64,000 bases of DNA from Candidatus Ruthia sp. Plio_17_S18. GTDB taxonomy: Bacteria > Pseudomonadota > Gammaproteobacteria > PS1 > Pseudothioglobaceae. This document shows positions 9,691 to 14,325 of the stretch, piece after piece. Made by a program: the position numbers and the translations under genes. A model generated the notes under the pieces. The model was not told where the DNA came from, searched no databases, and saw only the letters and a list, made by a program, of their open reading frames with translations. Position 1 is the stretch's first letter, and each line of letters starts with the position of its first letter. The DNA is taken from the NCBI GenBank assembly GCA_021730105.1, contig CP072538.1:989161-1053160 (forward strand), given 5' to 3'.

Positions 9691-9887
9691 CGCTCACCCT
9701 AAATGGCAAGTCGCTAAAGGTAGCTGAAAACTTAAACGCACATGATTTGATTGTTCAACTGGGTTATGAAAATCAGCGCATTGCGTTAGAAGTTAATAAA
9801 GCCATTATTCCTAAATCCAAACATGCTGAATTCACCCTAAGCGAAGGTGATGTTTGTGAGATTATTAAGGCTGTTGGTGGTGGTTAA
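9687..9887 (+). CDS. thiS: Sulfur carrier protein ThiS
   Basis: MTLTLNG..RIALEVN..IIPKS..EGDVCEIIKAVGGG*, C-terminal GG. ATG overlaps the upstream TGA (ATGA). Confidence 0.92.
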   Translation: MTLTLNGKSLKVAENLNAHDLIVQLGYENQRIALEVNKAIIPKSKHAEFTLSEGDVCEIIKAVGGG

Positions 9888-9964
9888 ATACTATAAATTA
9901 CGCCTAAGTACAAACTTAAATGTGCTTTTTGACTCCCATTTAATAGCTTATCAGTCAATCTTGA

Positions 9965-10258
9965 TCACAATCCACTACGAGTCGTTTTTAATCTTTTGAC
10001 GTGGACATCTAATCTATTAATTCTATCTCTGGTCATTGAAATATTGATTTTTCTAGTTTTATTCAAATTCTCAGAATCTGGAATAATATCTTTATTTTTG
10101 AGTGCAGCATCAAGATAGCATTTAAAAGCACTTTTCACATCTATAATTACCTTGTCTTTGCTACTGCCATCACCCATAACACCACTACTGTCCTTGTAAT
10201 AAGCAAAATACCCACCACAATCTTACTCATCTAATTTGTATGCAATAATGTCATAATC
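9965..10258 (-). pseudogene. HicB-family antitoxin remnant (HicB core plus RHH tail)
   Basis: In frame upstream of the 70-aa ORF: YDIIAYKLDE*DCGGYFAYYKDSSGVMGDG..DVKSAFKCYL, then KINISMT..RSGL*. Internal TAA, probable premature TGA, no start codon and no recognisable HicA. Confidence 0.7.
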
Positions 10259-10561
10259 ATAAATAGTGGTTAATAATTTATAACTATTATTAAGGCAGTA
10301 AGCGGTTAAAGCTTTACTACTTATATTCAAATATGCTGAATTTACCATAAATGAGGACAGACTATTAAGGCGGGTTGGTAGTTAAGACCTAAAGTAGATC
10401 ATAAATTTGAACCAACTCTCACAGCTTATCTTTGTTAATATTTTCGGAGCGAGGCAACACTCTAGACATAATTATTGGTTTCTGCGATTGCTTGTGCAAT
10501 TGAGCTAGAAACTGAGAATGGTTCGACCATTTTTGCATTATGTTTTAACACATGCATATTT

Positions 10562-10945
10562 TTAATATTGAATGCCGTATCTGTAGTAATTAAAAGCTAT
10601 GAGTGAGCGTAATTCGTTAACGTTTGGCAGACGCCAATCTTTATGCTCTGCAAAGCTTGAATATGCTCTGCAAAGCTTGAACCTGCATTTAAGGTGAGTG
10701 GTATTTGCAGGGCTGTCTTCCAAGTATGCATTGATGCTGTGCCTGTGGCACAATACAATCACACTGCCAATTAAACCTTCAGCACATTGTTTCCACATAA
10801 GTTTTGTAGTGTTATCGGTGATTGTGCTGTTGTTATGATCGGTATAGCGAGTATTTTGCCAATCATTAGGTATGTATTTTTTGCAAGTTTGGGCATTCGC
10901 CAAGCATGCTAAGAGGGCTAGAGTCAAAAAGAGTGATGTTTGCAT
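10562..10945 (-). pseudogene. Secreted DUF1566 (Lcl/C-type-lectin-fold) protein, internally scrambled and C-terminally truncated
   Basis: Signal peptide, RYTDHNNSTITDNTTKLMWKQC.EG, DWRLPNVNELRSL. The middle is frameshifted by duplications and the FWSS/VRLVR C-terminus is missing. Confidence 0.8.
10642..10681. repeat. Exact 20-bp tandem duplication
   Basis: TATGCTCTGCAAAGCTTGAA twice (10642-10661, 10662-10681). Confidence 0.95.
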
Positions 10946-11115
10946 GATTTGTTCCTATGGTTAAACCAAGCAAAGCTGGCTGATGCAATTTAGCGCCTTG
11001 CTTTTTAAATGATGGCTAATAAACAAAACTGCCTAACTCGGAGTTATTTAAGGTGATTATGCACGTAGCATTGCTCATTGCTTGCTAACAAAGACATAAT
11101 GTGGTTTAAAAATAT

Positions 11116-11170
11116 AATCTATCAACTTGCCACTATAACTTTGTGGCATTTTTTATAAGCTTGATAGATT
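11116..11170. other. Nested inverted repeat (hairpin/cruciform) just 3' of the DUF1566 lipoprotein gene
   Basis: AATCTATCAA (11116-11125) pairs with TTGATAGATT (11161-11170). Inner TGCCAC (11128-11133) pairs with GTGGCA (11143-11148). Confidence 0.7.
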
Positions 11171-11191
11171 TGTTGTACAGATACCTCCATA

Positions 11192-12262
11192 TCACACTTC
11201 GAGACGAACCAACCGAACCCTAAGACTATTGCTACGAAGGTTGTCGAAATCATCGCCGTTATAGAAATCCAGTAGCCACGCATAGCTAGAACTGGTAGAA
11301 TCGATAACATTAGGCGAGGACGACCAAAAGAACTCGGCAAATGTATTCGGAAAATAATTTGTATCAATGGTTGGATTAGTTTTCCCATTGTGAGTAATAT
11401 TACTTAACTCATTAAGAGTAGGTACTTTCCAATCGGTAAATCCACAGAGTCCACTGCCAGAATTACTGCCATCCACTAAGCCTGTCCAATCCTCATAATA
11501 ATTGCCTTGTGGGTTGGCATGAGTTTTACCTAGGGCTGTTTTCCGCCACAGCGATAACGATTGTCTTTATGATGAATATTGGTGTGATTACTATCAGTTG
11601 TGTCACTGTCTTTACTACCATTGTCAGTTTTAATCTCCCAAACTAATCCTGTTGTATTGTCAAGCACGCAAGACCATTTTGTGCCAGTACTGCCTGTTGC
11701 CCATGTTGCGTTTTGGATGCTAAGTGCAGTGCCATTTACCCCTAATTTGGTAAAGTCAAACCCCGCCATGCCGCCCCTATTTTTGTTAAAGTTTGTACAT
11801 CCAGCCCATGTGAGCAGTCTTATGCTGATATGGTCTCGCCTGTACAGTCTGCATTGTTGTCTGATGGATAATCCCCGCCCCAAGTTATGCCCGTGTCATT
11901 TAGTGTGCTAGTGGCAACTGCTACTGGTAGTGCTGGTGTAGCATTGACTTAATTGCTGGATGTGCTTTCGGTGCTGTTTTTTACAGCGGTAACAACAAAA
12001 TAATAAGTGGTGGTGTTAGACAAGCCTGTAATGACATGATTATTTATAGCAATATCGTTAATTAATATACCGCCTGTTAATGCTGCATAGTTACTAATAT
12101 CGCCGCTTAAAGCAACAAAACGCAGGCTTACTTGTTGATTCCTTACTGTTGTCGTTAAATTTGTTGGCGTAGATGATTGCATATGGCGTGTTTTTAGCCA
12201 CTGCCACAAGAAAACAACAAACTAGAAAGAATTATTAGACCTAGAATTCTTAAATGTTGCAT
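11192..12262 (-). pseudogene. Lipoprotein with fibronectin type III and DUF1566 domains, pseudogene
   Basis: AAGGAG SD, then MQHLRILGLIILSSLLFS-C-GSG* (lipobox-like). FN3-like ITGLSNTTTYYFVVTAV. LNDTGITWG..DCSHG..AGFDFTKLG..WSCVLDNTTGLVWEIKT..LCGFTDWKVPTLNEL..YFPNT..FWSSS..AW..F..G..VRLVR. Multiple stops and frameshifts. Confidence 0.85.
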
Positions 12263-12279
12263 AAGACTCCTTGTTAAAA

Positions 12280-12643
12280 ATGGATAGTAAGAAACTACAA
12301 AACAATACAATTGGTGAAAGGATTGGAATGGCGAGTGAGAATTTAAAATTATCAAAATCAAAACTTTCTACAAAAATGCATTTGTCTAGGTCAACTTGTG
12401 GACAATGGGAACGTGGTATTTCTAACATATCCACTGCACATTTGATGAAACTCGCTTGTATTATAATGGTGTCATTTGAATGGCTGGCAACTGGTGGAGA
12501 CGACAGACACCAAAGATGATGATAAAAATAACAGTTATGTTGATGATAATACTAAAATGCTAGAAATCAATCCACTGTTAGACAAAACTACATCCAAACA
12601 AAAAGATTATTTACTTGAGCTGTTAAACGATATTACCCACTAA
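12280..12643 (+). pseudogene. XRE-family HTH transcriptional regulator, frameshifted
   Basis: IGERI..LSKSKLS..LSRSTCGQWERG..VSFEWLATG. Removing one GACA of GACAGACA (12502-12509) restores the frame to ..DTKDDDK..LLNDITH* at 12643. Confidence 0.8.
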
Positions 12644-12664
12644 CCTTAACAAGGTTACGTCTTG

Positions 12665-13015
12665 TCAATGCTCATCATAAAAACCTAGTATCCGCTCAAG
12701 TTTTTCCTCAATTTCTTGCGTTTCTATTGTAGTTAGCTTGGTAAGTGCATCTGAGGTAAATTTATTAACATCAATCGCACGAATATAGTCACAAACAACA
12801 TCTGAATCGTATTTTAATCGGTCTCTCGCTATTTAATTCTACAGCGTAGCGTAGAGTTGTCAATCAATGCTGTGCTTAAAGGTAAAATATTAACCGTTTT
12901 GTGGCTGTTTAAGTTATTAGATTGAAATAACTAAAACTGGGTGGGTTTTGCCAATTTCAGCACCCCTGCTAGGATTCATATTGGCTAAATAAATATTACC
13001 CCTAACAAAATTCAT
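12665..13015 (-). pseudogene. MazF/PemK-family toxin pseudogene
   Basis: MNFVRGNIYLANMNPSRGAEIGKTHPVLVI, then (frameshift) KTVNILPLST, then (stop, frameshift) DVVCDYIRAID..LERILGFYDEH*. Confidence 0.85.
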
Positions 13016-13265
13016 TTTTCTTCCCAAGGTGTCAGTAGATATGCATCATCCATGGCCTCAAAATCTCTAATCAATTCATCATCCATACCTATGAGCGCAA
13101 AGAATCTTCTCGCATTTTTTTGGCCATTTCCCCGCCTTTGACTTTCTTTTGATAATCCAGAATGGTTTTACGAATGAATGAACTTTTAGATAGATGTGCA
13201 TCGAACGCCATTTGATTAATTTGCTCAAAAAAATCGTCTTGTGTTTTTAAAGTAATTGTTTTCAT
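13012..13265 (-). pseudogene. CopG/RHH-family antitoxin, frameshifted
   Basis: MKTITLKTQDDFFEQIN..LSKSSFIRKTI. The restored C-terminus ..DFEAMDD..WEEK* overlaps the toxin ATG (ATGA). Confidence 0.75.
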
Positions 13266-13278
13266 AATACTTTTTTTA

Positions 13279-14325
13279 CTACACCATCCAATCTTTTTGA
13301 ATTTCATCAGCAGAAAACGGCTTAACGCTTAATTGTTGTATCACGCCAACATTAAGTTTAACTTCCACATCAACTGAGTCTTCTTCTCTACCTTGAGAAT
13401 AGCGTGCTAATATTTTAGCGGCAATTTGCAAATCTTCTTGATTGGGTTCGCCATCAATCAATGCTAAAGGGCCATTACAACTGGTTGGATACAAATTGTC
13501 ATATTGATTACGATAACCTTCTAGGAATTTAACTTCTCCCTCTTCTCTAGCAACAATCATTTTAAAACGAGGATTTGGGCGAATATGTCTGCCAACTTTG
13601 AGCATCATTAAATCATCCAATTGATAATCACGATTGCCACGTGATTGCCACATATCGACCAATTTATCAGAATATTGCTTATCGGTTAGAAAACAACAAC
13701 CACCTGCCGGGGTGGCGTAATCATCAAAGCCATATTCTTTTGCTAAAGACATTTGTGGCTTGCGCGTACGCCCTGAAAAATCCAATAATTTTTCTCTGTC
13801 CACCCAACCTTCAAGTTCTGCTTTGGTGGCTGGTAAATGTTTTGCACATAAGGGTCTTAGGAGCAAATCATTCGCACCTGATTCTGCTTGGACAATAGGC
13901 ATGGTCTCTTTACGCTGTGACATAGGACGTTGACCCATGACTTCGCCTGTAATAATAAAATCAAATTCATGTTCAGTCATCCACTGTTTGGCTTTTTTGA
14001 CCATAAAGCCTTTGCAATCTAGGCATGGATTCATATTTTTGCCATAACCATGCTTAGGGTTTAAAAGTACGTCACGATATTCTTCAATCACATCAATAAT
14101 GTGTAATTTGATACCTAGCTGCTCTGCCACCCACAGTGCATTATTGCGTTTTTGTTTGTCTTTTTTTTGCTTGCGGATGGCGTGTGTATGCCCCTCCACA
14201 CAAAAGCCAGTAAAAAAATTAATGCCTTCTACATGAATGCCTTGGTCGAGCATTAGTTTAGTGCTTAATAGCGAGTCTAGTCCGCCTGAAATTAACGACA
14301 CAGCTTTAATTTGTTTGTTTGTCAT
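13279..14325 (-). CDS. ThiI/MnmA-like PP-loop tRNA sulfurtransferase with C-terminal DUF814 (NFACT-R)-like domain
   Basis: SGGLDS PP-loop, NPCLDCK, TGEVMGQRPMSQ, LLLRPLCA, GRTRKPQ, PAGGCCFLTD, GRHIR..MIVAR.E.E. Confidence 0.8.
   Translation of the reverse strand: MTNKQIKAVSLISGGLDSLLSTKLMLDQGIHVEGINFFTGFCVEGHTHAIRKQKKDKQKRNNALWVAEQLGIKLHIIDVIEEYRDVLLNPKHGYGKNMNPCLDCKGFMVKKAKQWMTEHEFDFIITGEVMGQRPMSQRKETMPIVQAESGANDLLLRPLCAKHLPATKAELEGWVDREKLLDFSGRTRKPQMSLAKEYGFDDYATPAGGCCFLTDKQYSDKLVDMWQSRGNRDYQLDDLMMLKVGRHIRPNPRFKMIVAREEGEVKFLEGYRNQYDNLYPTSCNGPLALIDGEPNQEDLQIAAKILARYSQGREEDSVDVEVKLNVGVIQQLSVKPFSADEIQKDWMV

Follow-up and report, generated by a model that had tools for sequence, protein, structure and literature searches.

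The window analysed here is a stretch of 64,000 nucleotides (nt) from the closed 1.23 Mb genome (37% GC) of Candidatus Ruthia sp. Plio_17_S18 (contig CP072538.1, positions 989,161 to 1,053,160), and the sequencing runs that contain its sequence carry the label 'mollusc metagenome'. On its minus strand lies a locus in which a broken lipoprotein gene is followed by fragments of a reverse transcriptase (RT) gene and of a second, smaller gene, an arrangement that probably represents the remains of a diversity-generating retroelement (DGR). The prototype of such elements, the Mtd-diversifying DGR of Bordetella phage BPP-1, acts by adenine-specific mutagenic retrohoming from a template repeat (TR) into a C-terminal variable region (VR) of C-type-lectin fold. 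A first-pass annotation made from the letters of the window had proposed that the 3′ end of the lipoprotein gene was the VR of a remote or orphaned DGR target.

The lipoprotein gene and its tail

The larger gene of the locus, referred to as the big target, is listed with the other features in Table 1. It aligns full-length (residues 26-363) to an intact 364-amino-acid (aa) lipoprotein of a relative in the Thioglobaceae (genome G122, contig C102, locus L152), with the alignment spread over three reading frames. The gene is broken in at least five places and contains a TAA at 12194-12196 directly after the lipobox, two further in-frame stops, and frameshifts, while its fn3 domain has a 16-aa gap relative to the G122 lipoprotein. 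An open reading frame (ORF) of 94 aa at 11192-11476 on the minus strand corresponds to the C-terminal two thirds of an Lcl_C/DUF1566 domain (Pfam, E = 1.4e-20), and the big-target tail passes the gathering score of PF07603 with 74.1 bits against a cut-off of 34.9.

The tail holds two runs of consecutive codons ending in T or C (NNY codons), of 11 and 16 codons, which the first-pass annotation had quoted exactly. The central CGT (Arg) of the longer run is conserved in the TR block to which it aligns. NNY codons account for 54.8% of the ORF codons of the genome, runs of at least 16 such codons occur 21 times in 283,000 ORF codons, and just 1.6% of 45-codon windows genome-wide contain 33 or more of them. 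The accompanying claim, that GC-rich scaffold codons set the tail apart from the sequence upstream, is partly true, the GC content being 46% in the last 45 codons of the ORF versus 37% in the first 49.

Table 1. Features of the relic locus, with positions given on the window and domain names from Pfam.
Feature	Position	Strand	Description
Big target gene, now a pseudogene	11192..12262	-	Lipoprotein of ~355 codons; signal peptide and lipobox MQHLRILGLIILSSLLFSCGSG; fn3 and Lcl_C/DUF1566
Probable former variable region (135 nt), FWSSSP...VRLVRLEV	11195..11329	-	Homologous to the VR/TR unit of related DGRs
Loop 1 of the former VR, 11-codon NNY run PNVIDSTSSSY	11282..11314	-	Codon reading
Loop 2 of the former VR, 16-codon NNY run DFYNGDDFDNLRSNSL	11222..11269	-	Gapless alignment to an AAY-rich TR block
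TGA stop of the big target	11192..11194	-	Followed by T, then the RT ATG; junction type found after TRs, not VRs
RT relic, codons 1-17, MEVSVQQIYQAYKKCHK	11140..11190	-	14/17 aa identical to the N-terminus of the G122 RT
Presumed slippage-deletion junction and RT residues 26-45, QSYSGKLIDYIFKPHYVFVS	11084..11145	-	Out of frame; tblastn and DNA alignment
Relic of the RT 3′ end and of the spacer between RT and small target	10950..11077	-	blastn/tblastn against G122
Nested inverted repeat	11116..11171	-	Wholly within the RT 5′ relic; inner stem GCCAC/GTGGC, 9-nt loop
Small secreted Lcl_C target (second DGR target), cut short and internally scrambled	10562..10945	-	Own VR lost
Variable island holding the relic, 3.4 kb	9888..13280	.	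Between a thiS-like gene ending at 9887 and a gene at 13279..14325

Reverse transcriptase remnants downstream of the tail

The 5′ and 3′ ends of an RT gene are preserved immediately downstream of the tail, with RT codon 1 beginning 1 nt past the stop of the big target. When a hidden Markov model of the RT N-terminus was run against 58,636 six-frame pieces of the genome, the piece with codons 1-17 was the top match (E = 0.006). Over the stretch that begins at the stop and ends with RT codon 17, the window matches the flank downstream of the TR in G122 at 49/56 nt and the corresponding flank in a second relative, G034 (OZ255703.1, locus L051), at 46/56 nt, against only 23/52 and 25/48 in comparisons with the flanks downstream of the VRs of G122 and G034, respectively.

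Relative to G122, 28 nt are absent between two CACAAAG direct repeats, of which the remaining copy lies at 11139-11145 (DNA alignment), and the RT sequence resumes beyond this gap with residues 26-45, 13 of the 20 being identical to the G122 RT (joint E = 7.6e-6, tblastn). It had been considered that RT homology ended at a breakpoint at 11140 and that the right hairpin arm was a fold-back copy; this was ruled out by tblastn with the G122 RT, in which the repeat-bounded deletion was recognised and RT homology was seen to continue beyond it. About 1.2 kb of the RT core is missing between the 5′ and 3′ relics, again relative to G122. On the far side, blastn matches 11077->11009 of the window to 2047-2113 of G122 (75%, E = 1.4e-9) and 10965->10937 to 2186-2214 (83%), and tblastn with the last 150 residues of the G122 RT aligns positions 105-129 of that segment to the 3′ relic (48% identity, E = 4e-4). 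The statement in the first-pass annotation that no RT was in view is contradicted by these relics, which together occupy the minus strand from 11190 down to about 10950.

The nested inverted repeat, which had been taken for the hairpin of a VR with its initiation of mutagenic homing (IMH) sequence, is real and starts about 21 nt after the stop; it lies, however, in the RT coding relic and is not such a hairpin. It folds at -25.2 kcal/mol (z = -2.9), with 1/200 shuffles equally stable. The outer arms (TCTATCAA/TTGATAGA) and the inner 5-bp stem with its loop AAAGTTATA also occur in the intact RT 5′ region of G122, and the repeat was thus inherited from the RT gene. A consensus scan called no intrinsic terminator at the inverted repeat, and RNAalifold predicted zero pairs, and no consensus structure, downstream of the TR across nine more distant DGRs. 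No IMH with a hairpin was found downstream of the VR, where the flank is of the TR type and forms the start of the RT.

Intact and decaying cassettes in relatives

A scan of one genome per species, with a four-sequence alignment as the query, found 80 loci with Lcl_C tails that share 38-68% identity with the tail in the window. A TR was found in 10 of the 80, and its mismatches to the homologous tail lie at adenines in 88-100% of cases, including 15/15 in L068, 25/25 in L109, and 18/19 in L067. At 10 loci the proven VRs align with the Lcl_C tail of the window and occupy the matching position, the C-terminus of the C-type-lectin-like domain. Gene order in the relatives' cassettes is constant, comprising a big target with VR1, avd (~125 aa), TR, an RT that starts 1-2 nt past the TR, and a small secreted target (~172 aa) with VR2. 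The RTs match RVT_1 (Pfam), and the identity of avd is confirmed by a score of 45 bits with bAvd in G034 (PF22296; cut-off 40) and by DivGenRetAVD as the best NCBIfam match.

The G122 cassette is intact, with avd, an Asn-rich TR at 558-700, and a 489-aa RT (MEVAIQQLYQAYKKCHKGKAK...), and 14/17 mismatches between its small-target VR (L152 2583-2722) and the TR are at A (p = 1e-6). In G034 the avd ORF is intact, the TR reads FWSSSPNANNSGNAWQLNFSNGNDNNNNRNNSNRVHLVRLGT, and the RT is reduced to residues 1-57 plus a C-terminal part. The order of big target, former VR, RT 5′ end, RT 3′ end, and small target in the window is collinear with both G122 and G034. The gutted RT of G034 (L051 3623-4255) forms a single open frame of 210 aa, in which residues 1-57 run in frame into the C-terminal domain. 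Directly 3′ of the intact G122 element stands a second pair of Lcl_C genes (L152 2857-4554), a big one of 364 aa and a small one of 170 aa, without avd, TR, or RT of its own; the tails of this pair are only ~62-67% identical to the TR, and the pair could be a cassette frozen at an earlier time, or its two genes could be remote targets.

Two further genomes, G036 and G032, carry up to five pairs of big and small genes, and RT is absent from the genome. In each pair examined, L054 excepted, the two genes enclose a truncated avd relic, and the pairs are therefore multiple dead DGR cassettes. The big gene encodes 377-900 aa and the small gene ~175 aa in L053, L055, L056, and L057 (G032) and in L052 and L054 (G036). 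The tail of L057 is unusually rich in Asn (30%) and could mark another VR/TR hybrid. At L067 (9427-11442), in a metagenome-assembled genome from the Lysobacterales, the 671-aa RT ORF contains two copies of an interrupting segment (..QSPK(S/L)SSVLN(K/R)FP..TRNDESGP..), which may be a small mobile insertion inside the DGR RT.

Homology and adenine bias of the probable former variable region

The former VR aligns with the proven VRs and TRs of L067, L068, L109, L113, L128, G034, and G122, and the scaffold letters TGGTCGTCCTCGCC (TGG TCG TCC TCG CC) are identical in the window and in the TR/VR of L067 and G122. Differences between the tail and the relatives' TRs are enriched at template adenines, with 19/38 TR adenines changed versus 20/87 non-A positions in the comparison with G034 (p = 0.003), 20/38 versus 16/87 with L067 (p = 1.6e-4), and 16/36 versus 16/90 with G122 (p = 0.0025), corresponding to 44-53% of A positions versus 18-23% of the others. 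Adenine enrichment was absent from a reverse control with the window as template (p = 0.86-0.97) and from a TR-against-TR control (p = 0.88-0.98). This pattern is consistent with past mutagenesis, yet falls short of the near purity seen in live pairs, and the signal is diluted through later drift. The adenine-biased differences from the relatives' TRs suggest that this particular VR was once diversified.

In composition the tail (NNY 0.84; K/E/Q/M/W 0.03) is close to DGR-positive tails (0.83 and 0.06), and the tails of RT-less paralogues (0.72 and 0.105) are a poorer match to it. Loop 1 is three codons (9 nt) longer than in all TRs and VRs compared, and the added bases, around TCTACCAGT / TCTAGC, resemble a short tandem duplication that has decayed.

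Absence of a working element

The element is dead, as no intact RT, avd, or TR is present in the 1.23 Mb genome, nor was any found in 11 genomes of the same genus. RVT_1 gave no match at E <= 10 in the genome and no match in any of the 11 others, and tblastn of the genome with the G122 RT recovered just residues 1-17, residues 26-45, and the short 3′-end piece. Searches by tblastn with four avd proteins (L067, L128, L068, and L109) and with the G122 avd returned nothing significant in the window or the genome. The G122 TR matched the genome only at the former VR itself, blastn with word size 7 located the tail nowhere else in the genome, and a genome-wide self-comparison produced no A-biased repeat pair. 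As a positive control, the same scans were applied to a genome of the same family, G016, where they recovered the RT at 1.4e-18 as well as TR/VR pairs in which all mismatches (14/14 and 19/19) fall on template adenines; true pairs were likewise recovered in 10 related loci. Two copies of a different and apparently active DGR are present in G016 at L060 (C1:6000-24000) and L061 (C1:53000-71000), with a 135-aa Avd, a 381-aa RT, and one target of 1890 aa, and a third VR in L061 has 11/13 mismatches at adenines.

A 60-kb Logan contig of depth 91 crosses the region without variants, and a 295-bp contig from a second sample is identical to the window. In this second mollusc-metagenome run, X2, the sole matches to a 1.9-kb stretch are contigs of 295 bp and 194 bp, both short, of low depth, and 100% identical to the window, at 11197-11491 and 12269-12400; they could represent carry-over between samples or a low-abundance identical strain.

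These searches separate the two parts of the earlier proposal of a remote or orphaned target. With the tail present in one copy and no intact RT or avd anywhere in the genome, the target is orphaned, and the word 'remote' has to be given up, since nothing in the genome could diversify the tail in trans. The broader suggestion of a once-diversified lipoprotein target, now a pseudogene in a reduced genome, is supported by the VR homology, the collinearity with G122 and G034, the RT relic, the adenine bias, and the absence of intact RT, avd, and TR.

Origin of the relic and alternative explanations

The locus is best explained, with a probability of roughly 0.87, as a fossil DGR, the tail being the frozen VR of the dead element with scraps of its RT attached. 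The ancestral element would have consisted of a big lipoprotein target (VR1), avd, TR, RT, and a small secreted target (VR2). Its RT would have copied TR RNA with adenine errors, and the resulting cDNA would have replaced the Lcl_C (C-type-lectin-like) tails of both targets, causing their ligand-binding loops to vary. VR1 and the TR 3′ end were then probably brought together by a deletion that removed avd and the TR and froze one VR variant directly before the RT start. The RT would subsequently have lost 28 nt through slippage at CACAAAG, plus ~1.2 kb of the catalytic core. The big target gathered stops and frameshifts, and the small target lost its VR.

The flanks of the tail are mixed, the 5′ side being continuous with the lectin domain of the target and the 3′ side being of the TR type (49/56 nt). 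With a VR-type flank on the 5′ side, a TR-type flank on the 3′ side, and both avd and the TR gone, these two components were probably removed by recombination between VR and TR, the simplest cause of their loss. Such a deletion would most likely have been a homologous recombination of two direct repeats with the crossover in the invariant 3′ block ...GTTCGTCTCG....

Several points weigh against a fossil DGR, or against parts of its proposed history. The crossover point is unlocatable, and an unrelated deletion with its ends in the VR and the TR would look alike. The element's own TR is gone, the adenine signature being measured against the TRs of relatives instead, and about half of the differences in the tail are at A, compared with 82-100% in live TR/VR pairs. 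The 9-nt insertion in loop 1 is impossible by DGR mutagenesis and must postdate the DGR. Variation was viewed in assembled contigs, not raw reads, and rare population variants may escape such a comparison. Finally, the last 45 codons contain 33 NNY codons where 28.7 are expected from the amino acids, a non-significant excess (P = 0.06).

This last point is what an ordinary Lcl_C/DUF1566 lipoprotein tail, never a target of any DGR, would lead one to expect, its NNY runs being simply lectin loops rich in D, N, S, Y, and F. The expectation was conditioned on amino acids in that D, N, F, and Y codons are forced to be NNY, and because most codons of the runs are forced in this way, the runs are not evidence by themselves. 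In the upstream half of the ORF, NNY codons are just as abundant (34/49 against 33.1 expected), and tails for which no TR was detected in the examined locus also average 0.77 NNY. The NNY excess is mostly amino-acid composition and is not diagnostic alone, and the NNY statistic was dropped as proof of a DGR. An ordinary tail is nevertheless very unlikely in view of the RT 5′ and 3′ relics between the big and small targets, collinear with intact cassettes, the TR-type 3′ flank, the adenine-biased differences from three TRs, and the avd relics in all examined paralogous pairs other than L054. Alternatively, most of the segment could be the TR, which a crossover close to its 5′ end placed in frame with the target and which mutated afterwards; this would account for the TR-type 3′ flank and for scaffold codons identical to those of TRs. 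The Asn content of 12% in the tail, against 48-62% across the nine TRs compared, makes this very unlikely, as does the change of 16-20 of 36-38 template adenines versus ~20% elsewhere, a pattern that decay without an RT would not yield. Remote VRs are known in DGR biology, and the tail keeps a VR-like composition, as would a remote target that some other DGR, whether encoded in the genome or carried by a co-resident element, continues to diversify in trans. Such ongoing diversification is extremely unlikely for a gene broken in so many places, with identical contigs in two samples and in a genome that has no RVT_1 match, avd, TR-like copy, or A-biased pair and where the G122 RT matches the relic only.

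Comparison with known systems

Read as a fossil DGR, the locus shares its inferred ancestral mechanism with the BPP-1 element. The latter is carried by a phage, and its features include an Mtd-type fold, a GC-rich IMH, and, 3′ of the VR, a hairpin with a short loop, whereas the window has a TR-type downstream flank and no demonstrable IMH hairpin. A closer parallel in target type is the LdtA DGR of Legionella pneumophila, which belongs to category 'd', with a CLec2 VR and DUF1566/DUF823/Fib_succ_major targets (Wu et al. 2018, PMC5758913). This class makes up 14% of DGRs, and its targets are about half short and DUF1566-only and about half equipped with adhesion-type extensions (PMC5758913), a split mirrored by the small and big targets of the window. 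Both loci have a surface lipoprotein target with a C-terminal DUF1566-type lectin-like tail that is diversified in Legionella and probably once was in the window. The Legionella element is active with RT, avd, and TR, whereas the window retains RT-end relics only, has no avd or TR, and carries both targets as pseudogenes.

Among the Thioglobaceae, G122 shares with the window the RT N-terminus, the TR/VR scaffold letters, the small target, a relative of the lipoprotein, and the nested inverted repeat; its Asn-rich TR, full-length RT, and adenine-differing VR are all lacking in the window. The closest homologue of the big target is found in G034 (59-64% identity in the tail), in a cassette that agrees with the window in gene order and has likewise lost the RT core. 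There the big target and the RT relic are still separated by the avd ORF and by a TR that can be recognised, whereas in the window the VR is fused straight to the RT start.

Implications for the loss of diversity-generating retroelements

To our knowledge, DGRs are usually catalogued only if intact, and their loss is rarely documented. Searches in the available literature collection found no paper linking DGRs with SUP05, Thioglobus, or vesicomyid symbionts, and nothing relevant on DGR decay. The loci described here form a graded decay series in one family, from the intact element of G122 through the deleted RT core of G034 and the avd relics of G032 and G036 to the VR fused to an RT stub in the window. 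The series includes the probable scar of a fusion between VR and TR and documents a route of DGR loss in a host-restricted lineage. It suggests that a mollusc symbiont with vertical transmission and a reduced genome descends from ancestors able to vary two lectin-like surface or secreted proteins, and that this capacity was later discarded, and it offers an explanation for the paired big and small DUF1566 genes, sometimes in five copies, that are scattered through SUP05-type genomes. Short relics of the RT N-terminus together with TR-type flanks provide a search handle that can expose former DGR targets missed by standard DGR finders.

Recombination between VR and TR might further be a general one-step route of DGR death, in which avd and the TR are lost and a VR variant is locked, repeatedly freezing a once-hypervariable lectin repertoire in host-associated Thioglobaceae. 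In that case the multi-copy RT-less pairs of G032 and G036, in most of which an avd relic survives, would form a fixed set of adhesins that descend from dead DGRs and still function. This generalisation is tentative and on balance doubtful; if true, one deletion both kills the DGR and fixes the current VR variant.

The small target and the surrounding island

The small target matches residues 20-117 of its 171-aa counterpart in G122 (49% identity) and residues 24-116 of the 170-aa counterpart in G034, and it passes the PF07603 gathering score with 52.5 bits against the cut-off of 34.9. No trace of its VR2 was found within 9880-10620. At 10571-10891 the gene contains an 11-aa insertion and a stretch of ~30 residues (GSVIVLCHRHSINAYLEDSPANTTHLKC..) that no longer resembles the homologues.

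The genes flanking the variable island are conserved in all 11 same-genus genomes, in which no DGR protein parts were found at the island site. Merely ~50-75 bp of the island are retained there in G004, G003, and G008, and G007 keeps 81 bp (window 10522-10602, 95% identical), a state that fits progressive erosion within the genus. The island part at 12247-13022 is 73% identical in G010, a genome without the cassette, and includes a gene for an XRE/cI-type helix-turn-helix protein (HTH_3, E = 9e-10) at 12271-12519 on the plus strand, divergent from the big target.

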